A stretch of 36,068 nt of DNA from a virus (taxonomy: Duplodnaviria; Caudoviricetes). The notes below the pieces were generated by a model that did not search any database, was not told where the DNA came from, and saw only the letters and a program-made list of their open reading frames with translations. The position numbers were made by a program, and so were the translations under genes. Within the stretch, counting starts at the first letter, position 1, and the number at the start of each line of letters is the position of its first letter. Positions 1,569 through 35,660 of this stretch are shown in pieces. The stretch spans positions 1 to 36,068 of IMG/VR virus record IMGVR_UViG_3300027659_000102; one strand, given 5' to 3'.

Positions 1569-2467
1569 GCTGCAATCCCTTTGAATTGCTTTTCTTTTGT
1601 GTCGAATTCCAAACCTGAATTGATTGCATGATTCAAGAGAGCATTCCAAATTTGAGTCTTTTCACCTTTGCCAAGTCCTTTTGCCTGCAATGCTTCAAAG
1701 AATGCATTGAATTCATCCACTGATTGCAAATTGTGCGCCTCTCTGATTGTTGCTTTGATTGTGTCAATTGCCTGTGCCTGTGATATTCTGTTTTGGTTAA
1801 ATGCCTCTTTTGTGTCATCAATGATTTGTTGCAATAGCATTCCCATTTCTGAATAATGTGGAATAGCATATGGTGTAAGTTCTGCACTATTTTTACCAAC
1901 CTTCCAATCATATGCATTGAAATCAATGATTGTGTTGCCTGCTGAATCTTTGTGCAAATATCCAATCATGTCAGACTTGGCAATGATTTGATCATATGAT
2001 GAACCCTCTGCCAATGGTTTCAATCTTCTCATTTCACCTTCAAATGTTTCTTTGCTGTGCATGATGAAAACAATATTGATTCCTAGTGATCTGATGAACT
2101 TATGGAATGTTGTGAATTCAGATTTTATTTCACCATACATCTGCAATTTCTGTGTTGCCAATTGTGGTTTCTTTTCAATCAAATAATCCTTGATTGAATC
2201 AATCATTGCACCCGCCGTATCAATTACAATTGTGTCATATCCTGTGAGCAATGCACGCAATTTTGATTCTGTTGCAATTTCTTTGTAATTGACACGCTCG
2301 AATACATCAGAAGAAAGTTTTGATCTTTGATGCCCTTCATCAAAGTCAAATACAATTGCATTCTTTGCCGTATTGCCAAGTGTTGTTTTTCCTGCTCCTG
2401 CTTCTCCATAGATTGTGATGGTAAATGATTCAAGTTTCAATGATTCATCTTTCTTTGTTATTTGCAT
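1565..2467 (-). CDS. AAA_24-family P-loop NTPase (Sak4-like single-strand annealing protein)
   Basis: Walker A IYGEAGAGKTTL, DFDEG, Walker B IVIDTAG, FIMHSKE; adjacent to an exonuclease gene. Confidence 0.85.
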   Translation of the reverse strand: MQITKKDESLKLESFTITIYGEAGAGKTTLGNTAKNAIVFDFDEGHQRSKLSSDVFERVNYKEIATESKLRALLTGYDTIVIDTAGAMIDSIKDYLIEKKPQLATQKLQMYGEIKSEFTTFHKFIRSLGINIVFIMHSKETFEGEMRRLKPLAEGSSYDQIIAKSDMIGYLHKDSAGNTIIDFNAYDWKVGKNSAELTPYAIPHYSEMGMLLQQIIDDTKEAFNQNRISQAQAIDTIKATIREAHNLQSVDEFNAFFEALQAKGLGKGEKTQIWNALLNHAINSGLEFDTKEKQFKGIAA

Positions 2468-2697
2468 GGTTCATGCTCCTTTGTGAATAGTGCTTTGACT
2501 TCATTCATGTCAACCAACATCATTTTCTTATTCTTGATTGACATTTGATATTTGATATGTTTCAATTTTGGTTCAACATACCAAATCTTTTTTCCCTTTT
2601 GCCGTTTCCTGCCACAACATAGAAACTGAATGTATCTTTGTGTGACTCCAAATATTTCCGCTGCCTCTGCTGTTGTTATCCATTGTTTTGTTTTCAA
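2458..2697 (-). CDS. Small helix-turn-helix DNA-binding protein (excisionase/MerR-like)
   Basis: WITTAEAAEIFGVTQRYIQFLC matches the HTH_17 pattern; TTG start overlaps the upstream TGA. Confidence 0.75.
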   Translation of the reverse strand: MKTKQWITTAEAAEIFGVTQRYIQFLCCGRKRQKGKKIWYVEPKLKHIKYQMSIKNKKMMLVDMNEVKALFTKEHEPCK

Positions 2698-2867: not shown

Positions 2868-3225
2868 GTTCATTCTCCACTTGTGATTTGAGTGATTTGT
2901 ATTCTTCCATCAAGTTCAACCAATCATCAACCAAATCTGAATAAGATGGTGATGTCAATTTATCTTTCACGAATTTCTCATTTGTGTACTGTTCCAAATC
3001 TCTTTCATATACATCAGGCATTGCATATTTGATTGCTATGGATGCCTTGATCCATCTGCCATGATATTGCACGCCCTCTCTTGTTGAGTCAAGCCATTCA
3101 TCAAATGATTTGACATAGTCATGAGAATCAGGCACAAAGGAATTCATCAGTTTTCCTATCTTACTCATTTGTCCTTTGATGTGTGCCATTTCATTCATGA
3201 TTCTGTTGCCTTGTTTGTCTGTCAT
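2860..3225 (-). CDS. Hypothetical early protein
   Basis: Start moved to ATG 3225 (GGAGCAtaagATG); the longer track ORF runs through the hairpin at 3254-3269. Confidence 0.75.
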   Translation of the reverse strand: MTDKQGNRIMNEMAHIKGQMSKIGKLMNSFVPDSHDYVKSFDEWLDSTREGVQYHGRWIKASIAIKYAMPDVYERDLEQYTNEKFVKDKLTSPSYSDLVDDWLNLMEEYKSLKSQVENEHA

Positions 3226-3253
3226 CTTATGCTCCAATTGTTTTGAATAATAA

Positions 3254-3269
3254 GGGCGGCGAACCGCCC
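3254..3269. terminator. GC-rich hairpin with UUCG tetraloop
   Basis: Minus strand GGGCGG-TTCG-CCGCCC followed by TTATTATT; the plus strand is followed by CGCGTTTTTT; intergenic. Confidence 0.6.
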
Positions 3270-3283
3270 CGCGTTTTTTATTT

Positions 3284-3496
3284 TTAATTCCACACATTAA
3301 ACTTAGGGAACCAATACCCGTCAATTTCGCGCGCTCCCAAATAAACTAAATTTGATCCCCACCATTTACATAATAAATTCGCATACTCGTTTGCCTGCTC
3401 TTTTTTTGCGTATCCATATACTGTTTGATTTGGCAACAATACACCATTCGTTTTTTCGTATGATTTGTGCGCTGATTTTTTTTGTTCTGTTGTCAT
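3284..3496 (-). CDS. Hypothetical early protein, 70 aa
   Basis: ATG with GGAGCA RBS directly downstream of the promoter repeat at 3541-3574. Confidence 0.75.
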   Translation of the reverse strand: MTTEQKKSAHKSYEKTNGVLLPNQTVYGYAKKEQANEYANLLCKWWGSNLVYLGAREIDGYWFPKFNVWN

Positions 3497-3540
3497 GTCT
3501 CTGCTCCAAAAAATAATTGTGTGTGTGTTTAATTACAAAT

Positions 3541-3574
3541 GCAATATATGATATATGCGAACCACTTCCAAACA
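3541..3574 (-). promoter_or_regulatory. Early promoter P2, Bacteroidota-type; contains 23-bp repeat copy 1 (3552-3574)
   Basis: TTTG (3572-3569), 20-nt spacer, TATATTGC (3548-3541), a variant of the -33 TTTG / -7 TAnnTTTG consensus. Confidence 0.6.
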
Positions 3575-3579
3575 AAAAA

Positions 3580-3762
3580 TTAAATTCCCAAAAAAACTTC
3601 TTCGCAAATTTGCATTCCATTATGTCTGAAGATTCTTTGTCCTATCGAATAGTCACAAAGTGCTTTTGCCTGTTCGCATGTGAACCAACTGTCAAGACCT
3701 GTGTTTGCATTCAAGAAAGTTCCATCAGCATTCAAGATTCTAAGTTTGCCATCTAACCACAT
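3580..3762 (-). CDS. Hypothetical early protein, 60 aa
   Basis: Start moved to ATG 3762 (GGAGCAggaaaATG); lies between the two 23-bp repeats. Confidence 0.7.
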   Translation of the reverse strand: MWLDGKLRILNADGTFLNANTGLDSWFTCEQAKALCDYSIGQRIFRHNGMQICEEVFLGI

Positions 3763-3803
3763 TTTCCTGCTCCGATATTGTTTGTGTTTCAATTATTACA
3801 TCA

Positions 3804-3837
3804 CAAACATACGGTATATGCGAACCACTTCCAAACA
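3804..3837 (-). promoter_or_regulatory. Early promoter P1, Bacteroidota-type; contains 23-bp repeat copy 2 (3815-3837)
   Basis: TTTG (3835-3832), 20-nt spacer, TATGTTTG (3811-3804), an exact TAnnTTTG match; repeat TGTTTGGAAGTGGTTCGCATATA is identical to 3552-3574. Confidence 0.7.
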
Positions 3838-5361: not shown

Positions 5362-7229
5362 GCATACATCCTTGCAGTCAATTCAACATCTCCTGAAAAC
5401 ACATCCAAATCATGTTTTGTTATCACTGCTGTTCCTGTGTTCGCATTGTAAATTTTTGTTATCAATGAATTCATATCATTCATATTGATTGTGCAATTTG
5501 CACCAACATCTTCAAAACCACAAATGGAATGTTTTGTCTTGAATGATATTTCCGTTTCCTTTGCATTTCCTAATGCTTTGACAAGTGAATAAGCCATTGT
5601 ATATGGCACGCCTGCTGTCTGCTGTTCAACAATCATTGCAGCACTTAATGCATCATCTTTTCCATATGGTTTGTTCTCACCTGATGATGGCACATCAGTA
5701 TATTGCAATTTAATTGCATCGGTATTTGAATACTTGAATTGACATGTTGAATCAACTTTCTTTGCCCTTCCGAGCTGTGTAATTACATACAAAATCATGC
5801 CTGTATTGATTGCGTTTCTGACGTAATCATTTCCCCTGTTTGTTGCACTTGGTAAATTATGGAAAACAATTTCAACATCTTTTGAATTGTCTCCTGATGT
5901 TCCCTGTTCTGAATATGGGAATACCTTATTGTCTTTTTCACCTTGCAATGTAGAACATGAAATATCTACTGATTTAACAGTCTCTTGGAATAATTTGAAT
6001 TTGACATCACCATATGTATTTGATGAATTGAATGTGATGCCACTGCCTGTCAATGGTCTGATGAAATCAGCCGTGTATGTTGCCGAAAACCAACCCGATA
6101 CCGAAGACCATGCATAAACAATGCGATAATTTTCCAAAGTGTTTTCAACAATCAATTTCAATATTTCATAAGCATTCCCAACTTTGCCTAATGCTGTTGG
6201 ATCTTTCAATGCACCACCCATCAATTTAGGCGTTGTTGAACCTGTGCCATCAGGCAATTGCCACATCTCACTAATATATGCAGGTTTTGAAATCGCATTT
6301 GTTGGAACGCTCCCATGAATTGTCCTTTGCTGATAGAATGTCCATGCCTTTGCAAAAGGAATAGGCAATGAAATTGATGATGATAAATTCCATGTGAACC
6401 CTCTCATGTATCTTGTAAACAATGCTTGCATCTTTGTCCGCATTCTTTCAAATGTCGATGTATTGTACACAATATTATTTGGTGCATAATCCCTTGCATA
6501 TCTTACATTTCCACGCGAATCTGTGTAATTGTCTTCATATAAATCAACACGATATTTTTGCTCACTTGATAGTTCAACATATCCATCACCATAATCAATT
6601 GTGATTGGTGGTGTCAACATGCCTTCAATCATATCATTCACAAACATATTGTGGTTGATTGCCTCTCCGATGCATCTCATGACATCAAAGCATTCAATCT
6701 TGAATTCCAATATCTCTGACAACTTATTGACTGTCAATTCATTCTCTGCACTGTATTTTTGGCATCCAATAAAAATTGGTCTCAATCCACTTCCATCATT
6801 GACCATCAAAATGAATGTGTTGAATTTTTGAAAACTACCAACACCAAAATCATAATAGTTTCCAAACTTATCATATAAACTTCCACCCTCTCCTATGTCA
6901 TTATAGTCAATGCCTTTTGATGTTGAACCCTGCAATAATTGCTCACGTAATTCATCATAATTTGCAGTGCCCTGCAATGCTGCAATATTCAATGTCATTT
7001 GCAAAGTTTGTGATACAAGTCCAACAGGAATTTCACCAAGTTCTGTTGAAAGTTTCATATCTCTCATTATGAAATCATCAGGCAATTCAACCAATGTGAA
7101 AGTGCTGTCAAAGAATCCTGCTTGACTTGGGAATGATGGATTGATGTTTGCATTGCTTGGAATGATATACAATGTATATTGCCAATCATTTTCATCTGTC
7201 CATTCTGAATAGAATCTTTTGTATGCCAT
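5358..7229 (-). CDS. Minor tail/baseplate hub-like protein, 623 aa
   Basis: Size and position (second gene after the tape measure); function inferred from synteny only. Confidence 0.6.
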   Translation of the reverse strand: MAYKRFYSEWTDENDWQYTLYIIPSNANINPSFPSQAGFFDSTFTLVELPDDFIMRDMKLSTELGEIPVGLVSQTLQMTLNIAALQGTANYDELREQLLQGSTSKGIDYNDIGEGGSLYDKFGNYYDFGVGSFQKFNTFILMVNDGSGLRPIFIGCQKYSAENELTVNKLSEILEFKIECFDVMRCIGEAINHNMFVNDMIEGMLTPPITIDYGDGYVELSSEQKYRVDLYEDNYTDSRGNVRYARDYAPNNIVYNTSTFERMRTKMQALFTRYMRGFTWNLSSSISLPIPFAKAWTFYQQRTIHGSVPTNAISKPAYISEMWQLPDGTGSTTPKLMGGALKDPTALGKVGNAYEILKLIVENTLENYRIVYAWSSVSGWFSATYTADFIRPLTGSGITFNSSNTYGDVKFKLFQETVKSVDISCSTLQGEKDNKVFPYSEQGTSGDNSKDVEIVFHNLPSATNRGNDYVRNAINTGMILYVITQLGRAKKVDSTCQFKYSNTDAIKLQYTDVPSSGENKPYGKDDALSAAMIVEQQTAGVPYTMAYSLVKALGNAKETEISFKTKHSICGFEDVGANCTINMNDMNSLITKIYNANTGTAVITKHDLDVFSGDVELTARMYA

Positions 7230-12608: not shown

Positions 12609-12633
12609 AAAAGCCCTATAAATGCCCATGGTT

Positions 12634-12673
12634 AAACAAAACAAAAGGACAGGACACAATCTATGCCCTGTCC
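12634..12673 (-). terminator. Intrinsic terminator/attenuator after the major tail gene
   Basis: GGACAGGGCATA-GAT-TGTGTCCTGTCC followed by TTTTGTTTTGTTT. Confidence 0.75.
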
Positions 12674-12686
12674 ATATTTCAATCAA

Positions 12687-13256
12687 TTACGCTGATGCTG
12701 TGAGCCAAACTTCAACATATCCTCTGTCTTCAGGAATTGTCACAAATGTGGCAGGAGCCAATGTGACAAATTTGCTTTGGAATGCTGATGCAGGAACTGT
12801 CACAAATGAGTCATTGTTGACAATTTCGCCACCAACTTTTGGCTTGGTATATTTGCCTGATTCCATGTCGAACGCCCCAACATCCTGTGCCAATTTGCAA
12901 AGCATGATGACAACTTTTCTTTTGTTCTGATATTCAGGAACCGTGCCTGCATATTTTGCACCATAAGTGATTTTGCCAAGTGTTTGTGATGATGCTGTTG
13001 CTGAATTAAATTTGACCCCATCTTCATATTCGCCTGAATCTGATGCCGCCTGTGTTTGTGGTGCATAGTCAGTCAGAAATGCTGTGAGCTTAGGATCATC
13101 TTCATTTTGGTCAATTGTGAAATTTGTTCTTGTTACTGATGTTTTGATTTTCTTTGTCAATGAAACTAACGGGACCGTTGTGGTTGCCCATAATGGAACA
13201 CCATTTGATTCAAATGCTGTGAAGAAATCGGTATGATTTGCGCCACCTACTAACAT
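12687..13256 (-). CDS. Major tail (tube) protein
   Basis: 189 aa, T/A/S-rich; upstream of the chaperone and tape measure; followed by a terminator, as is common for high-copy structural genes. Confidence 0.7.
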   Translation of the reverse strand: MLVGGANHTDFFTAFESNGVPLWATTTVPLVSLTKKIKTSVTRTNFTIDQNEDDPKLTAFLTDYAPQTQAASDSGEYEDGVKFNSATASSQTLGKITYGAKYAGTVPEYQNKRKVVIMLCKLAQDVGAFDMESGKYTKPKVGGEIVNNDSFVTVPASAFQSKFVTLAPATFVTIPEDRGYVEVWLTASA

Positions 13257-13260
13257 AGTT

Positions 13261-13947
13261 TTATTCCTTGCTTAAGTGTGTAAATGTCTTTACTAAATAA
13301 TTCCAAACCCTTTGTGAGGGTTTTCTTGTATATTCTCGAATCAGCAATTTTGCGTTTCTCTCTGCCTTTGGATTGAATGAATCTTTTTCAATTGCATATC
13401 CATCATGAATCAAAATGATATTGGTATCATGAAACGGCAACTCATTTCCATTTGTTGTTGGTATCTCATGACATATCCCTTCCCAATTGATGCCTGAATT
13501 CCTTTTGAACAATCTACAATTGTGCAGTGCATATCTTTCACGAACATGTGCATTTTCAGGTTTGTCAAATGTAATTCCTGCAATTGATGTCCAACCTGCA
13601 ACAACACCTTCTGCATCCATTGACTTTATTTCATCAATCACATCATCAGGATGATTTGCAATATATTCATCAGAGTCAATATGCAAGACCCATTTTCCTG
13701 ATGCATGAAAATCCATCATATTTCTAATTGCACTGAAATCAAAGTCAATGCCATAATCCTTGTATTTATATTGCAATGTCACAATCTTTGGTGTGTCTGC
13801 AATCAATTCAAATTGTTCATCATATTCATCAACCTGTTGAATCATGCATGAAACAATCTGTGCATCTTTTGGCAATCTTGAAATCAGCATTGATAGATTG
13901 CATTCCTTTGGATGCATCACACAAACTGATAGCAATTGTTCTTTCAT
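13261..13947 (-). CDS. GT2-family glycosyltransferase inside the tail module
   Basis: FDFSAIRN, KWVLHIDSDE (DxD), RLFK..WEGICHE, ILIHDGY..KAERNAKLL: the motif set of SunS/beta-4-glucosyltransferase-like GT2 enzymes. Confidence 0.88.
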   Translation of the reverse strand: MKEQLLSVCVMHPKECNLSMLISRLPKDAQIVSCMIQQVDEYDEQFELIADTPKIVTLQYKYKDYGIDFDFSAIRNMMDFHASGKWVLHIDSDEYIANHPDDVIDEIKSMDAEGVVAGWTSIAGITFDKPENAHVRERYALHNCRLFKRNSGINWEGICHEIPTTNGNELPFHDTNIILIHDGYAIEKDSFNPKAERNAKLLIREYTRKPSQRVWNYLVKTFTHLSKE

Positions 13948-14405
13948 GAAATCCTTGTGTAAAAAATTCTGAATGTCATCAATGTCAATCCCTTTGTTTC
14001 ATCATCTGAAAATGTAACAGGTTCCGAGCCAATAAAGTGAACAGATGAAAATGTTGTTTGTTCATAATCAGATACATATTTTTCAACTTCCAAATCTGTC
14101 AAGCACCATTCAGCTTTTTCTGCCAAATCTTGCATGGCATATCTTAGTGATGCCTTGCCAAGTGTTGGTTGCTTCTTGACTGCATTTCCAAGCAAAAGAT
14201 AGATATCAATTTTGCCCAAATCGGAAACGGCTGACATATCTTCCAAAGACTCTGTGAATCTTTCATCAGTGCTTCCATAAATGCCTACATAATCAAAGCC
14301 ATATGATTCATATTTGTGCAATAGTATTTGTTCATATACTTTCACACCTGACATTGTATTCAATTGATTTGTTATGGCATCAGTTAAATGTTTTTCTCTT
14401 GACAT
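13944..14405 (-). CDS. Tail terminator/completion protein (putative)
   Basis: Position, size and the C-terminal LMTFRIFY strand; start moved to ATG 14405. Confidence 0.6.
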   Translation of the reverse strand: MSREKHLTDAITNQLNTMSGVKVYEQILLHKYESYGFDYVGIYGSTDERFTESLEDMSAVSDLGKIDIYLLLGNAVKKQPTLGKASLRYAMQDLAEKAEWCLTDLEVEKYVSDYEQTTFSSVHFIGSEPVTFSDDETKGLTLMTFRIFYTRIS

Positions 14406-14409
14406 GTTT

Positions 14410-15000
14410 TTAGTTCCGTGTTCTGTTTTGCAGTTCAATGATACCTTGGACAATTGCCTGTTTCATTTGCTTTTCAAATTTCGGTTGTCCATTCCTTTTG
14501 AAATCTTCAATCGCAGGTTTCCAATATGGTCTTGCTTTGATATTCACACCACCTTTATTTTCAATGGACAATGCAATCCTTTTGAAAAATGGTGCTTTTG
14601 TTTCCATGTATTTGCGCCAAAAGAATTGTGCCATCACATAAGTTTCTTTTTTCCTTTTGACTGATGATGCTCTTTTGATTGCATTGATGAATCCACCAAC
14701 TTCATGAATTTTTGCATAGGGAATTTTGCTTCCATATTCCAAAGTAAATTGGCTGCCTGATTGCGATGCCTTGTAAACATTGTTTTTATTATTCTTGATG
14801 AATGATTGAAACAAACCACCACTAACAGAAAACAAAGAATTTCCCGTATTGAAAACAGGCGCACGATTTGTTGCACCACCTGTTGCACCTTGATTCTTGA
14901 TAAACTTTGCAATGGACAATTGCATGAATGCAGGGAACTGTTGTAATTGGTCCGCAACAACAGGTCTGATGATATTTGTGATTTGTTCCTTTGAAAACAT
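14410..15000 (-). CDS. Virion morphogenesis protein (Mu gpG/HK97 gp10-like)
   Basis: EYGSKIPYAKIHEVGG and IKARPYWKPAI motifs. Confidence 0.82.
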   Translation of the reverse strand: MFSKEQITNIIRPVVADQLQQFPAFMQLSIAKFIKNQGATGGATNRAPVFNTGNSLFSVSGGLFQSFIKNNKNNVYKASQSGSQFTLEYGSKIPYAKIHEVGGFINAIKRASSVKRKKETYVMAQFFWRKYMETKAPFFKRIALSIENKGGVNIKARPYWKPAIEDFKRNGQPKFEKQMKQAIVQGIIELQNRTRN

Positions 15001-15626
15001 TAGACTGTTGCAATCCTGAATTTTTCAAAATGTCTTTGCCATTTGATGTCAGTGCTGATTGATGCATTGATGCTTTGACCTGCGCCACCTGTTGCAACAG
15101 AATTCAATCCAAACCAATTACCGCCTGTTGCTGAATTCTTGTATATCCATGATGCCATTTCCGTAATGCCTTGCAAAACATTATTTGGCATTGTTGAATC
15201 TGAATACCCTGTTGACAATGTTGCGCGGAACATCCCTGAATTGATACTCCTATATATCACGAAATTCAATCCATTGTCAGTACTGAATGCATAATTTTGA
15301 GCATTGACATTTGCATAGGTTGCAAATTCATCTGCCTTCCATTGCAATGCTGTCAGAGCCGTGTTTGCTGTGTAGGGTATATATTTCCACCTGTGCTCAC
15401 TTTCTAAGCCGTGGCGGGCTTGAGAATGCGTAAAAACATAATTTACCGATGATGCACGCAAGGGCTGACCACAATATGATTCAGCCTCTGCATAGCATAT
15501 ATCAAAAACATCATCAAACCATTCATACAATACGGCATCCTCTGATGATTGATCGCCTGATAATTCCAAATTATTGTATTGAAAGAATGATGCCTGCAAT
15601 CTTGGGTATGCCGTTGAATAACTCAT
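15000..15626 (-). CDS. Head-tail connector/adaptor
   Basis: AEAESYCGQPL, TGYS..MPNNVLQGITEMASWIYKN and C-terminal FEKFRI, typical of gp6/gp15-like adaptors. Confidence 0.8.
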   Translation of the reverse strand: MSYSTAYPRLQASFFQYNNLELSGDQSSEDAVLYEWFDDVFDICYAEAESYCGQPLRASSVNYVFTHSQARHGLESEHRWKYIPYTANTALTALQWKADEFATYANVNAQNYAFSTDNGLNFVIYRSINSGMFRATLSTGYSDSTMPNNVLQGITEMASWIYKNSATGGNWFGLNSVATGGAGQSINASISTDIKWQRHFEKFRIATV

Positions 15627-15860: not shown

Positions 15861-17075
15861 TTAGGTTGTTGATGTTTTGAGAACGCCGATTGCTGATGGT
15901 GCAGGGAATGCAATTCCAATTGATTCAGTGACCATGATTCCGCGTTGTTGTGTTCCACCAAGACCTGTTGCTGCAAAGTATTCTTTGTATTCATCAACTG
16001 TGATATCCTCACGAATACCAAGGATTGAATACTGTGAAAAATCTGCATAAACCGCTGATGCAACATTTGCTGCTGATGTCGCAAACAATGAATCAGGAAC
16101 AACATGCATTGGGCGACCTGTTGGTGTCACATAGGTATTGTTTTCAAGTGCTGTGAGTCCAATTGATGTCACTTCCAAAGGACGAATCATATCCCAAATA
16201 GGACGGCCATTTACTGCATCAGTTTCTTTCAAGAGGTAACCAAATACAGATTGTGGCACAACAAATACACCATTTGCACCAACACCTGAATTCACACCAA
16301 GGCGAAGATTGATTAAGTCCTTCCATGAGATATCTTCAAATGCATCTTTGCCTGAATTATTTGCACCGCCTTGTCTGATAACTGATGTACCTGAAAGGAT
16401 TGTGCAACCTGTGAATTCGGGTGCATTTCCTGTGCCCTTGAAAAACTGCTTATCCTCTGCTTCTGCAATTGCCTGTGCCAAACCTTGAATTGTGTAATCA
16501 AGGAATGCAGGTGTTGCATCACGCAATTGTTCATCAGACACAATACATCCACCAACAATTTTCTTGGCTGTGAGTGCTGTGCCTGTGTAGAAATTTGCAC
16601 TGTCTGTCAATGTGAGTGATGAACCTTCGGCAACAACGGCTGCACTGAATGCACCTGATGATGTGATGTTTTCTGTCTTGCCTCTCATTGGATAGATTTT
16701 TGCAAGTGCTCTTGCATATCCAAATCTATCAGCAAATGACATAATTTCTTCAACCCAAAATTGAGGAACCGCAAATCCACCCTGTGCATTTGTTCCTGTG
16801 TTGAAATTTGCTCTTGTCAAATACTTTTCATTTGCTCTGTTTGCAATATCTTCTGCAATACCCAATTTGCCTTTTGTCAATGCTGTGATGTATTCACCAA
16901 CAATGCGGGCTTGCTCATTCTTTGTGTCATGATCGGCTTTGACTTTTACATATCCAACTTGCGGTGCATTCATTGGATTCATGCTACGCACTCTTTCTGT
17001 TGCAATTTCATTTGCACGGGATTCAATCGCTTTTGTCAAATCCTCTTTTGTTGTTGTAATGATATTACTATTCAT
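15861..17075 (-). CDS. Major capsid protein, HK97 family
   Basis: GGFAVPQFWVEEI, VSDEQLRDA, EDKQFFKGTG, NGRPIW and YADFSQY motifs. Confidence 0.95.
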   Translation of the reverse strand: MNSNIITTTKEDLTKAIESRANEIATERVRSMNPMNAPQVGYVKVKADHDTKNEQARIVGEYITALTKGKLGIAEDIANRANEKYLTRANFNTGTNAQGGFAVPQFWVEEIMSFADRFGYARALAKIYPMRGKTENITSSGAFSAAVVAEGSSLTLTDSANFYTGTALTAKKIVGGCIVSDEQLRDATPAFLDYTIQGLAQAIAEAEDKQFFKGTGNAPEFTGCTILSGTSVIRQGGANNSGKDAFEDISWKDLINLRLGVNSGVGANGVFVVPQSVFGYLLKETDAVNGRPIWDMIRPLEVTSIGLTALENNTYVTPTGRPMHVVPDSLFATSAANVASAVYADFSQYSILGIREDITVDEYKEYFAATGLGGTQQRGIMVTESIGIAFPAPSAIGVLKTSTT

Positions 17076-27536: not shown

Positions 27537-27775
27537 TGTTCAAGTTCTCCAAACATCTGTGAAATGAATGTGCCACCAACTGTCATCACCAAACACAAAA
27601 GTGCTATTCTTTCATATTCCATTATGTAGCAAATACCCGCGCCCGCTGTGCCTGATGCTGCAATGGCAATTCCAAGCCGTTTCATTGCCTGTGGTGTTGT
27701 CAATTTGAGTCCCTTGAATCCAAATAAGACTTTTTTGCTTTCACGCTTCCTGCGAGGTTTTGGCACATCAGTCAT
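27533..27775 (-). CDS. Holin-like protein (2 TM)
   Basis: Basic N-terminus and two hydrophobic helices; start moved to ATG 27775. Confidence 0.65.
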   Translation of the reverse strand: MTDVPKPRRKRESKKVLFGFKGLKLTTPQAMKRLGIAIAASGTAGAGICYIMEYERIALLCLVMTVGGTFISQMFGELEQ

Positions 27776-28070
27776 GTTGATTGCCTTTGATGTTTGCAAT
27801 GGCAATGAACAATTGATCCAATCTTTTGTTCAATGAATTATTCAAATCCTGAATTGCTTTTGTGTTCTCGGCTTGTATGTCTTCAATTTCTCGGACTCTT
27901 GATTCAATGTGACTCACTTGAAATGCCTTTTGTGTTGCATCTCGGATTGTGTCTGCAATCAATTTTGCATTGCTCACATCCCTTTTGTGCAAATAACGAA
28001 ACAGCATAAACATCAAAGTGACAACAGATACCAATGATGCCAATATATTTTTCAAAATCTCAAATTCCAT
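27768..28070 (-). CDS. Holin/antiholin-like membrane protein
   Basis: One N-terminal TM helix plus coiled coil; first gene of the late operon. Confidence 0.6.
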   Translation of the reverse strand: MEFEILKNILASLVSVVTLMFMLFRYLHKRDVSNAKLIADTIRDATQKAFQVSHIESRVREIEDIQAENTKAIQDLNNSLNKRLDQLFIAIANIKGNQHD

Positions 28071-29428: not shown

Positions 29429-29451
29429 ATCAAATTCCTGAATAATGATTC

Positions 29452-29492
29452 AAAATAAAACCTTGCCAAATTCCACTGATATTCGACAAGGC
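29452..29492 (-). terminator. Intrinsic terminator
   Basis: GCCTTGTCGAAT...ATTTGGCAAGGT 12-bp stem (its G-U pairs work only on the minus strand) followed by TTTATTTT. Confidence 0.72.
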
Positions 29493-29531
29493 TTGGAGCA
29501 TAACATGAGAAAAACCAAACCACACAAAACC
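29452..29531 (-). ncRNA. Candidate 3'-UTR-derived base-pairing sRNA
   Basis: Unpaired UCAUGUUAUGCUCCAA directly 5' of a terminator hairpin, complementary to the RBS+AUG of several phage genes. Confidence 0.35.
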
Positions 29532-29696
29532 CTATGCCTGATTTTCTGTTTCATCCCAATTTAATGCAAAGTAATATGCCAATTGACTAACTTCCAAAGG
29601 TGTCAATTCATGTCCATCAATGACAAACATTTGCGGATTTTTCAATTCTTCGCAATACAATGTGCCATCCTCTAATTCACTACAATTCAAATTCAT
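29532..29696 (-). CDS. Hypothetical acidic protein, 54 aa
   Basis: Read manually: MNLNCSELEDGTLYCEELKNPQMFVIDGHELTPLEVSQLAYYFALNWDETENQA; overlaps the upstream gene end. Confidence 0.6.
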   Translation of the reverse strand: MNLNCSELEDGTLYCEELKNPQMFVIDGHELTPLEVSQLAYYFALNWDETENQA

Positions 29697-31294: not shown

Positions 31295-31797
31295 GCTGAT
31301 GTTCCAAAAAATAGTTTGTATTCTTTTACCATAAATTTCCATACTGACAATTCATCTTTCAATGGTTGTATTTCTTTTTCATATTTCTTCGCAAGTTCGA
31401 TTGCATGAACAATTGATTTTGGCGCACTTTTGCCCGTGTGCTCACACCATGCATCGAGCGTTTCAATATGGCTCGGAGTGACAAGGCGCACAAACTTATC
31501 TGCATGTTCTGTTTGCTTTTCACTTGCATCCGTTTTGTGTCTGCCTCTTTTCAATTTTCTTTTTTCATTTTCTATCAAATCCAAACGAATCAATGAAATT
31601 CCTGTGACATGTGGACTCAATACCCTTGCAAAGTTTATCACATCCATATTGCCTGATAAGATGTCAAATGTTTCTTTGTCTTTTGATTCAAGTTCAACCA
31701 TGCCATTATCAATCCTTTTGAATGCTCTGTAAAAAGCATTTCGCGTTTCTTCGGGAATTTCATAATACTTTGTTTTGAATTCTTCTGCTTCCATCAT
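31291..31797 (-). CDS. Hypothetical protein
   Basis: Start moved to ATG 31797 (GGAGCA RBS, ATGA overlap). Confidence 0.7.
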   Translation of the reverse strand: MMEAEEFKTKYYEIPEETRNAFYRAFKRIDNGMVELESKDKETFDILSGNMDVINFARVLSPHVTGISLIRLDLIENEKRKLKRGRHKTDASEKQTEHADKFVRLVTPSHIETLDAWCEHTGKSAPKSIVHAIELAKKYEKEIQPLKDELSVWKFMVKEYKLFFGTSA

Positions 31798-32129
31798 GCT
31801 ATTTGCTCCAAACAATTTTGAATGATTTTGTATGTTTCTTCTTTCTTGATTTGCTGTGGTGTGAATCTCAAAACACGCCACCCTGCTTCTGCTGCCAAAT
31901 TGTATTTTTCCATATCCTTGACATACCCACTGCCACGGGTGTGCCTTCCTTGAATCCAAACACCGCCTTCAATTTCAACTGCAAGTTTTTCATCAATCCA
32001 TGCAAAGTCAAATCTGAATTTTCGTTTGTCCATGAATTTGAATTCCTGCTGTGGTGATGGAATCTTGAATGATCTGCATAATGCCATGAAAAGAATTGCA
32101 TTTGATTTTTCTTTTTGCCTTCCTACCAT
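31794..32129 (-). CDS. DUF559/Vsr-like PD-(D/E)XK endonuclease
   Basis: RKFRFDFAW, LAVEIEGG, GRHTRG, DMEKYN and GWRVLRFT. Confidence 0.88.
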   Translation of the reverse strand: MVGRQKEKSNAILFMALCRSFKIPSPQQEFKFMDKRKFRFDFAWIDEKLAVEIEGGVWIQGRHTRGSGYVKDMEKYNLAAEAGWRVLRFTPQQIKKEETYKIIQNCLEQIA

Positions 32130-34667: not shown

Positions 34668-35119
34668 GCCTTTTGTTCCTTTGTCACATAATCATGAATA
34701 TACTTGATGACATATTGTGCTTGTCTATCTTTGTCAATTGAAAACATGCCTATCTTTTCAACAATCCTAATTGGCAAATTGTAAATTGCCGATGCATGTC
34801 GAAGAATGCAAAATCTTTCATGTTCATCCAATACCCAATCCTGAAATCTGATTGAATCATAGGTGTATTCTGTGTCATGTTCATTTCTTGAAAACGCTTT
34901 GAATCCTTCATATTCAATGAAATCTTCCGAGCGAATCCATGCAAGTGCTTCCCAAAAATTGCCACGGAATCCTGAATTCTTTTCCCATATCCTGTCTAAA
35001 AACACATCCAAATCTTCAGGACTTCTCACCGCTGAATTTACAGACAATCCATCATAATTTGATTCGGGAAAATGGTCTGCAAAATACAATGTGTCTTGTT
35101 TCAAAATATCAAATCTCAT
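34664..35119 (-). CDS. Hypothetical protein
   Basis: AGGAG RBS; overlaps both neighbours. Confidence 0.7.
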   Translation of the reverse strand: MRFDILKQDTLYFADHFPESNYDGLSVNSAVRSPEDLDVFLDRIWEKNSGFRGNFWEALAWIRSEDFIEYEGFKAFSRNEHDTEYTYDSIRFQDWVLDEHERFCILRHASAIYNLPIRIVEKIGMFSIDKDRQAQYVIKYIHDYVTKEQKA

Positions 35120-35660
35120 GTTTTCTCCTGTTGCTTATTTCGTGTAAAAATTTATCAACTTTATTTGCAATGTCTCTTGATCTTGCGTAGCATTCCAAAT
35201 CATCAATGGCATCCTGAATTGATGTCGTGATTGTGCTTCGCTCTCTGTTGATTATTGGTGCAATCTGTTCATGCGTTTTCATAAAATAATAGTATGAAAA
35301 GAATGCAAAATATTTGCGTACCATTGGCAACGGTATTTTTCGTGATGCACCTAATACATCCACCACATCAACATCGAATTGCTGTGCCAAAAATATCAAC
35401 ATCAATTTGATATCATGTGGTGTTTTGTGTGAATGCTTATATCTGTTCCTGAACCTCTCTGCTGATTCTGAAAAATAGGATGCCGTTGGTGTTTCTTCAA
35501 TCATTGTATTTGCACGCCTTTGCGCTTTTGTTGGCATTGATCTTTTGAATAACTTTTCACGCTCTTTTCTTAAAGCCTCTGCCATGCTTCCATGATGTCT
35601 TTTGTTTTCCGCAACATTTGCAATTGCAGGAATTATTGTCATATTTCCCATTGCTTTCAT
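35109..35660 (-). CDS. Protein with DnaA domain IV-like HTH
   Basis: LAQQFDVDVVDVLGASRK..VRKY..THEQIAPIINRERSTITTSI aligns by eye with Bac_DnaA_C; no AAA+ domain. Confidence 0.78.
   Translation of the reverse strand: MKAMGNMTIIPAIANVAENKRHHGSMAEALRKEREKLFKRSMPTKAQRRANTMIEETPTASYFSESAERFRNRYKHSHKTPHDIKLMLIFLAQQFDVDVVDVLGASRKIPLPMVRKYFAFFSYYYFMKTHEQIAPIINRERSTITTSIQDAIDDLECYARSRDIANKVDKFLHEISNRRKHEI

Follow-up and report, generated by a model that had tools for sequence, protein, structure and literature searches.

A short stretch at the junction of the replication and late genes of a virus contig (record G000, 36,068 bases, analysed whole and called the window below) is almost complementary to the translation start of a distant early gene. 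A sequence-only reading had proposed that this stretch specifies a small RNA directed at the early genes of the phage itself. We asked whether the complementarity is conserved, whether it follows the early genes when these change, which transcript would carry it, and what the pairing would do.

Genome organization of the phage

All convincing genes of the window are on the minus strand. PHROGs and Pfam recognised a Sak4-like recombinase (2467), a primase-helicase (33844), a DUF3127 single-stranded DNA-binding protein (SSB, 30292) and an endolysin (31031), and likewise the terminase, portal and capsid. The early/replication module runs from 3835 down to 1 and continues from 36068 down to the element. 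One contig end truncates the ORF at 170, whose homologue spans the other end; thus, the contig probably represents a nearly complete circle that was opened at this ORF.

No convincing integrase match was found in the window (one weak match, E 2e-4, without a passing stretch), and the scan of GTDB genomes with terminase and capsid alignments yielded no relative, hence neither a prophage nor a host. Judging from these searches, the phage is likely lytic. Its capsid matches to cultured phages are all below 60%, the ten listed being at 22–24%.

The earlier statement that the genome has no recognisable repressor holds at the level of families, as neither Pfam (24 proteins scanned) nor PHROGs (29 proteins) found one, but it has to be qualified by three early proteins with weak helix-turn-helix matches below the cut-off: 35109–35660 (Bac_DnaA_C, E 0.002), 2458–2697 (HTH_59, E 1e-4) and 297–908 (Recombinase/HTH_62, E 0.05). 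By sequence, they are candidates for transcription control or antitermination. No Q-type antiterminator family was recognised among the window proteins scanned with Pfam and PHROGs, which gave weak helix-turn-helix matches only.

Structure of the element

Read along the minus strand, the element is preceded by a 54-aa ORF (29532..29696), which is conserved in the window's clade and has no Pfam or PHROG match. This ORF hosts a predicted promoter (29566..29598) composed of TTTG (29598–29595), a 21-nt spacer and TACTTTGC (29573–29566), with the start site predicted near 29560. Two early promoters are predicted on the same strand, TTTG-N20-TATGTTTG at 3804..3835 and TTTG-N20-TATATTGC at 3541..3572. 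Both fit TTG-N17-23-TANNTTTG, given as the RpoD consensus of Bacteroidetes/Flavobacterium (bioRxiv 10.1101/172254). All three predicted promoters have TTTGGAAGT in common; it occurs six times on the minus strand, three times with a correctly spaced −7 box (3835, 3572 and 29598). The −7 box within the 54-aa ORF also encodes Tyr-Phe-Ala, and hence its conservation is not independent proof of a promoter.

There follow a GU-rich arm (29510..29531), the seed (29493..29512), in which an anti-SD CUCC (29498–29495) and an anti-AUG CAU (29507–29505) have the spacing of a start site, a hairpin that is likely an intrinsic terminator stem (29458..29494) and a U-rich tail (29452..29460), all on the minus strand. 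The start of the next gene lies 32 nt beyond the tail onset. Four small genes lie between the element and the 100-aa gene that opens the late module (27768..28070, start at 28070). This gene, which is not a predicted target, has no family match above the cut-off and is holin-like by inference only.

The hairpin and U tail, previously read from the letters, were borne out by folding: on the minus strand 29494..29458 with the tail reaches −16.5 kcal/mol (z −3.8, 0/200 shuffles), whereas the fold of the plus strand of 29440–29531 reaches only −6.7. A simple terminator scan of the window did not list this hairpin. The seed of the window overlaps the stem base by 2 nt. In isolated folds, the unpaired probability of the CUCC core is 0.24–0.73 in the window's clade and 0.76–1.0 in the sister clade described below. 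If the window RNA is taken as 80 nt, the seed is partly hidden, with a mean unpaired probability of 0.32, compared to 0.58 for the 109-nt form.

Complementarity to early gene starts in the window

The plus-strand sequence of the seed, TTGGAGCATAACATGA (29493–29508), has a sole other site with at most two mismatches on either strand of the window. This site (3222..3237, minus strand) is the start of the 121-aa early gene 3225; it has one mismatch (15/16), and the next best sites have four, so the match from which the sequence-only reading argued is real. At the same threshold, shuffled sequences yielded 0.15 matches on average, and at least two matches, the number observed, in 1/100 cases.

The motif GGAGC occurs at the SD distance in 5/20 early/replication starts (3762, 3496, 3225, 2467 and 31797) and 0/35 late ones in the hand-curated set (Fisher p = 0.0045). 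When the 20-nt seed (29512–29493) was paired with the 55 starts, the top five were all early: the 145-aa gene 31797 (31793..31811, −22.5), gene 3225 (−21.8), gene 3496 (3493..3509, −20.7), the 151-aa gene 35119, which had been overlooked earlier (35113..35130, −17.5), and gene 2467, which encodes the Sak4-like recombinase and is the predicted target that varies least across the family (2464..2479, −16.6). All these sites are on the minus strand. The top-five mean of −19.8, obtained with seed limits that were chosen after the match was known, compares to −14.1 ± 1.2 for the best five of shuffled seeds (0/400). Thus, the early starts do outrank the shuffled-seed controls, and of the additional targets named before, 3496, 31797 and 2467 are retained. 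The remaining one, early gene 3762 (3760..3773, minus strand), shares GGAGCA only and pairs weakly (−13.2, rank 8–9).

The suggestion that the GU-rich arm works as in GcvB, where a conserved GU-rich region pairs with CA-rich enhancers, did not hold. Adding the arm to the seed cuts specificity (7/400), the late starts 27536 and 21638 entering the top six, and the arm alone does not discriminate: its pairing energy is −15.0 for the leader of 3496 and only −8.2 for that of 3762, and several late leaders reach −13 to −13.5. The G+T fraction is 0.88–0.96 in 3/17 elements listed, all of them close kin of the window, and 0.38–0.71 in the other 14. The arm is lineage-specific, neither conserved nor selective, and could provide auxiliary pairing at most.

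Immediately upstream of the 3225 start, at 3248–3287, the gene strand carries a GC-rich hairpin with a UUCG loop, and there is a long T-run on the plus strand. This hairpin beside the best-matching target may be a two-way terminator or a stabilising 5' hairpin.

Conservation of the element in related phages

In six close relatives (83–90% in the primase-helicase) and eight metagenome loci (three of them duplicates, the window itself among them), GCTCC(A/G)A is found directly before the hairpin in the same slot, and the hairpin letters turn over with the pairs retained. A sister clade was reached via a capsid scan, from which 80 of 150 loci were kept; 27/30 and later 11/15 more were analysed. 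The anchor-gene scan yielded 70 loci, of which four with almost no upstream DNA and three too short were omitted, leaving 63 loci, many of them near-identical or repeat records. The element is present in 58 of the 63: in 55 according to a fixed detector (CTCC directly 5' of a hairpin with a T-tail), in two on inspection (L232 and L240) and in one as a TTCC variant (L289, genome G038). In these 58 loci a promoter-like region, clear in most, precedes the anti-SD/anti-AUG seed, which is followed by the hairpin. As for the misses, the DNA of L231 stops short of the slot, the upstream DNA of L239 and L279 (809 and 592) does not reach the smallest observed distance (923), and L294 and L295 share the anchor gene only. 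The detector gave false positives in 4/30 control windows (5/98 hairpin sites).

In the 14 sister-clade rows, two-sided changes are seen in 5/11 stem pairs, and 92% of cells are paired. The covariation score of 0.41, computed with a structure drawn from one row and hence favouring that structure, was reached in 0/500 shuffles, and the slid controls gave at most 0.12. In 23/23 elements, the gene strand gives the better hairpin fold. For seven window-clade rows RNAalifold produced no consensus stem, though each row folds alone, since the stems of this clade align out of register.

The seed is kept and re-tuned over phages with 60–97% capsid identity, while the flanks and stem turn over; a direct comparison of seed and flank identity was discarded as circular, the rows having been selected by seed. 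The anti-start triplet is CAU in 16/23 elements. The L002 group (CGU) and G010 (UAU) keep the pairing to AUG by means of G-U and destroy the mirrored ATG, L096 reads CAC, and L238, L232 and L293 have no anti-AUG. Group I has two seeds in tandem. The exact 16-nt pattern had seven matches across viral contigs, none with flanking homology. A search for RNA datasets containing the phage listed none; a relative at roughly 90% is present as contigs with flat depth in two runs (uncertain type, one study), which speak neither for nor against expression of the element.

Several observations concern the neighbourhood of the element in individual relatives. A second CTCC-hairpin-T site occurs near the main element in L182 (G010, coding position 6884) and about 100 nt upstream of the element in group H (L189/L192); it is possibly a second RNA or an upstream terminator. 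In L001, at 12610–12800, the duplicated 3' end of a DUF559 nuclease gene is fused to a methyltransferase-like start; this marks a gene-swap hotspot, where the inserts of relatives differ, several having GGAGCA starts.

Co-evolution of the seed and the early start sites

The 16S tail too pairs better with early than with late starts on average in nearly all genomes. As early starts generally have stronger SDs, the comparison that matters is between the own and foreign seeds. With automatically called starts (22 genomes, 14 groups), the own-seed preference of early starts was reached in 0 of 100,000 permutations, and in 2 and 0 of 100,000 when permuted within the two main clades; these counts overstate independence, the groups being related to one another, and the start calls are noisy, with 3225, 3496 and 31797 of the window missed. 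For late starts the preference is weaker yet real (240 and 1,422 of 100,000), the mean residuals of early and late starts being −1.73 vs −0.92 (best-five) and −0.99 vs −0.29 (mean). If only GGAG-bearing starts are considered (15 genomes, 9 groups), the seed again prefers its own early starts (197 and 80 of 362,880 permutations; 1 of 5,040 for seven merged groups), and in this test neither late starts (p 0.24) nor internal occurrences of GGAG (p 0.52) display such a preference. Thus, the covariation between seed and ribosome-binding sites that had been named as a test is indeed observed in the relatives.

The seed tracks the early SD flavour, which may be GGAGC, GGAGT, GGAGA or GGAAT. The 5-mer predicted from the seed is the commonest or tied among early starts in 12/14 groups, groups C and D failing. 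GGAGA being a widespread default (7 groups), the telling cases are those of GGAGC (groups A, B and K), GGAGT (I) and GGAAT (Q). GGAGC is found at 16/57 early starts in K and 6/21 in B, and GGAGT at 25/137 in group I. In the terminase tree K is situated inside the sister clade, away from A–C, and hence GGAGC, judging from this tree, was probably reached twice. For G038, with its TTCC core, the prediction of GGAAT was noted before its sequence was seen, and it held (10/31 early starts); GGAAT is also at 5/29 late starts, and the top three duplexes of this genome involve late genes. A gene block (starts MVVPNYEW, MDNKDILI and MELKAAIE) appears twice in G038 (L312, L311), due to either an assembly overlap or a terminal repeat, and hence a few of its starts are counted twice.

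At the level of individual genes, the most frequent target is Sak4, among the top-six duplexes in 14/20 genomes; the SSB gene is among them in 8/21 and is a target in the sister clade, not in the window's clade. In 18 genomes with consistent start calls, the median rank percentile of the Sak4 start is 0.05 with the own seed, 0.25 with the 16S tail and 0.18 with the seeds of other groups. The Sak4 orthologues covary with the seed (4 of 100,000 permutations, 11 groups), with poor pairing in B and Q. The Sak4 starts of G003 and G038 pair poorly (−10.9 and −5.5), and in G003 a U-to-A change in the seed mispairs with its own GGAGCA sites. The capsid gene and the first late gene are spared, with the median percentiles of 0.80 and 0.85.

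These data bear upon the possibility that the RNA is a broad anti-SD sponge damping any mRNA with a strong SD, host ones included, so that the seed merely tracks a general start-site style. Its core is indeed a generic anti-SD CUCC, late starts do have some own-seed preference, late genes are among the top-ranked duplexes in five genomes (G033, G034, G037, G038 and G022), and G038 is poorly class-specific. Nevertheless, the early preference is several-fold stronger than the late one and is absent for internal GGAG, Sak4 covaries at the level of orthologues, and the capsid is spared. Hence we consider general damping rather unlikely. The comparison across relatives indicates that this is a real, conserved anti-RBS element co-evolving with its predicted targets.

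Position at the early/late junction

In the genomes compared, the element always lies between the replication and late modules. In the sister clade and in G038 it occupies an intergenic gap, and the gene immediately behind it is the homologue of 28070. The sister-clade element stands alone as a unit, and in most groups a −7 box is located about 45–50 nt upstream of it; groups H and F and loci L274, L232 and L263 have no clear box there. A search for TAnnTT(TG/GC/CG/GT) within 140 nt found no box in 6/23 elements and only a distant one in two more. In G038 the element is 1.3 kb from the homologue of the 54-aa ORF, ahead of the late module.

The distance from the tail to the next start codon is 7–56 nt (23 elements), with no room for a promoter after the tail; hence the late genes would be reached by read-through of the terminator. 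Origin from a 3' UTR, as initially proposed, agrees with the local arrangement in the window's clade, but not with the intergenic position behind a promoter-like site in the sister clade or with the displaced element of G038; family-wide, the terminator is not shared with a fixed upstream mRNA. A predicted promoter, a short leader and a predicted terminator ahead of the late operon are what a leader of the pR'/tR' type consists of, and an origin as such a leader, running from promoter to terminator in the lambda layout, is more likely for the element than processing of a 3' UTR.

Two relatives differ in the surroundings of the promoter. In L006 a tRNA-like insert (3522–3590, plus strand; Rfam tRNA 38.6 bits, missed by ARAGORN) separates the 54-aa ORF and promoter from the seed, and its processing could set the 5' end of the RNA in this phage. 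In G025 (L208) TAAGTCCCTTG is common to the element promoter and a second one, which precedes the genes of the SSB region (coding-strand positions about 13930–13960 and 16500–16530); this shared sequence suggests a middle/late promoter class.

The same position could serve an RNA-sensing attenuator, in which pairing of early mRNA, or long-range pairing within the same transcript, to the seed alters read-through of the terminator, coupling late transcription to early mRNA levels. This would agree with the seed always abutting the stem, and overlapping its base by two nucleotides in the window, with the lack of space for a promoter between the tail and the late operon, and with the single-strand gene order, all genes of most relatives being on one strand. 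However, pairing invades at most A-U pairs at the stem base, and no alternative antiterminator fold was found in the folds of the element. In G022 (L185, L186) the early module is inverted relative to the late one, the element being on the late strand at the divergent junction, and hence same-transcript pairing is excluded there. We regard attenuation as distinctly unlikely.

Other explanations of the complementarity

Very improbable, in our view, is that the seed masks the start of the next gene in cis or is a functionless inverted copy of an early start that happens to lie beside an ordinary terminator. Anti-SD elements often act in cis, and copying might explain the 15/16 identity with 3225. 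Masking is at odds with the weak pairing of the next gene, 29428 (−11.1), and with the high percentile of the first late gene; a functionless copy would not be expected to persist and be re-tuned as the seed does, at capsid identities over which its surroundings turn over.

The host clues are relevant to a reading of opposite sign, an activating adaptor that, in an SD-ignoring host, supplies the anti-SD or opens early starts and thus promotes translation. The predicted promoters follow the RpoD type of Bacteroidota/Chlorobi, groups reported not to use SDs (PMC3155529, on Bacteroidetes and Chlorobi genomes; also PMC9976891). On the other hand, the duplex also covers the AUG, needed by the initiator tRNA, and ordinary AAGGA-type SDs at normal spacing at 8/35 late starts of the window imply SD-reading ribosomes. 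An activating role is therefore hard to credit.

The combination of Bacteroidota/Chlorobi-type promoters with clear SD use is unusual given the account in PMC3155529, and it hints at a host in a neighbouring lineage; no literature on SD use in Kapabacteria was found. A Methylophilaceae label on a metagenome-assembled genome in one homologue cluster was rejected as host evidence, given the promoter type. No usable host emerged from the sources named for the capsid and SSB homologues, and the provirus L294, which has only the anchor gene, from the tail region, in common, gave no clue. L294 also encodes a stand-alone EAL-type c-di-GMP phosphodiesterase domain (14691–15398, plus strand; matches below the cut-off).

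That the seed is in fact the translation start of a short antisense peptide on the opposite strand (GGAG-N6-ATG; 19 aa for the window) scarcely deserves belief: its mirror image is a textbook start, and L096 has GTG at the mirrored codon, but the mirror ORFs are of 2–25 aa, unrelated and frame-shifted between close relatives, 3/9 groups have no start codon at the SD distance, two of them via changes that keep G-U pairing to AUG, and the hairpin with its U-tail is oriented along the gene strand. A peptide encoded on the sense strand across the element was also rejected; frames of 25–37 codons are open in three lineages, and the products are unrelated.

Proposed mechanism

The explanation that we favour, and hold to be reasonably probable on the sequence evidence, is a trans-acting repressor of early translation produced as a terminated leader RNA of the late operon. 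A short RNA, predicted to be about 110 nt in the window and about 75–80 nt in the sister clade, would start at the predicted promoter at the head of the late operon and end at the predicted intrinsic terminator there. Its seed, complementary to the SD, spacer and AUG of several early genes of the same phage, would pair in trans with their mRNAs and block ribosome loading; repression is the expected outcome because the duplex covers both the SD and the AUG. Late genes would be transcribed via read-through of the element's terminator, as at lambdoid pR'/tR', and the build-up of the leader RNA would act as a delayed brake on the synthesis of early and recombination proteins as assembly begins.

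In this scheme a private SD flavour would serve as an address label for one class of genes. The broader proposal, that a lytic phage family runs its early-to-late switch by such an RNA address code, we consider evenly balanced between true and false. The code would comprise the private SD flavour of the early genes and its exact complement on the terminated late-operon leader, the two being rewritten together. The Sak4 recombinase family is reported to be necessary for phage replication and to be sensed by anti-phage systems (PMC5499656, PMC11846896), and hence limiting the Sak4 dose may matter.

Early-protein shut-off in lytic phages without known repressors or nucleases is mostly unexplained, and a class-wide, co-evolving anti-RBS RNA, if true, would add a general timing mechanism. 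The natural panel of matched seed/RBS pairs would also provide ready-made orthogonal translational repressors.

Comparison with known systems

Rfam 15 gave no matches in the window at the gathering score, including C4, cuckoo/ar14 and GcvB, and in L245, L238, L291 and L289 only one tRNA located elsewhere; an E-value scan of L006 3300–3900 gave a tRNA and two chance-level matches. The sequence-level features of trans-encoded small RNAs are nevertheless present: the element is distant from its predicted targets, has short imperfect complementarity to several mRNAs and a conserved covarying seed, and ends in what fold and covariation indicate to be an intrinsic terminator with a U-tail. The literature yielded no direct precedent (few subscription papers; the 38 phage sRNAs listed without a function in Table S1 of PMC12197685 were outside the comparison). 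The available part of a 2025 review of phage sRNAs deals mainly with lysogeny and host-directed cases (PMC12197685), and a 2010 review of T4 noted that no small RNA acting in trans had been characterised in this phage (PMC3014915).

Phage RNAs that pair at or near translation starts of the phage itself are known, namely c4 of P1/P7, sar, OOP, aQ and 24B_1; as described, they control the lysis-lysogeny decision of temperate phages, with one target gene or operon each (PMC8201110, PMC12197685). Unlike the c4 group, the element has no Rfam C4 match, and its predicted targets are scattered over the early region of about 10 kb. An anti-SD-like CU-rich motif is also found in the Cuckoo/ar14 RNAs, chromosomal RNAs of alphaproteobacteria reported to have CCUCCUCCC in the loops of 2–4 hairpins (PMC4615179). 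Here, in contrast, CUCC occurs once (twice in group I) and not within the hairpin, but in a linear seed 5' of one hairpin, with an anti-AUG and varying together with the targets.

With respect to its origin, the predicted RNA resembles StxS and lambda 6S, leaders of the pR'-tR' type, as early termination behind a late promoter would yield a base-pairing regulator. StxS is described as Hfq-bound, processed to 74 nt and made in lysogens, where it represses stx1AB and activates the host rpoS (PMC7547250). In contrast to StxS, the targets predicted here form a class among the early genes of the phage itself, and no Q-like antiterminator was identified.

With respect to its logic, the closest parallel is the marking of early mRNAs as a class in T4, where, as reported, an extended GGAG motif at the RBS exposes early mRNAs to RegB and they are shut off together, while late mRNAs escape (PMC3014915). 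Whereas the nuclease RegB is a protein and requires ribosomal protein S1, the predicted reader here is an RNA, which may be re-tuned by sequence change. If the address code proves true, it would be the RNA counterpart of T4 RegB.
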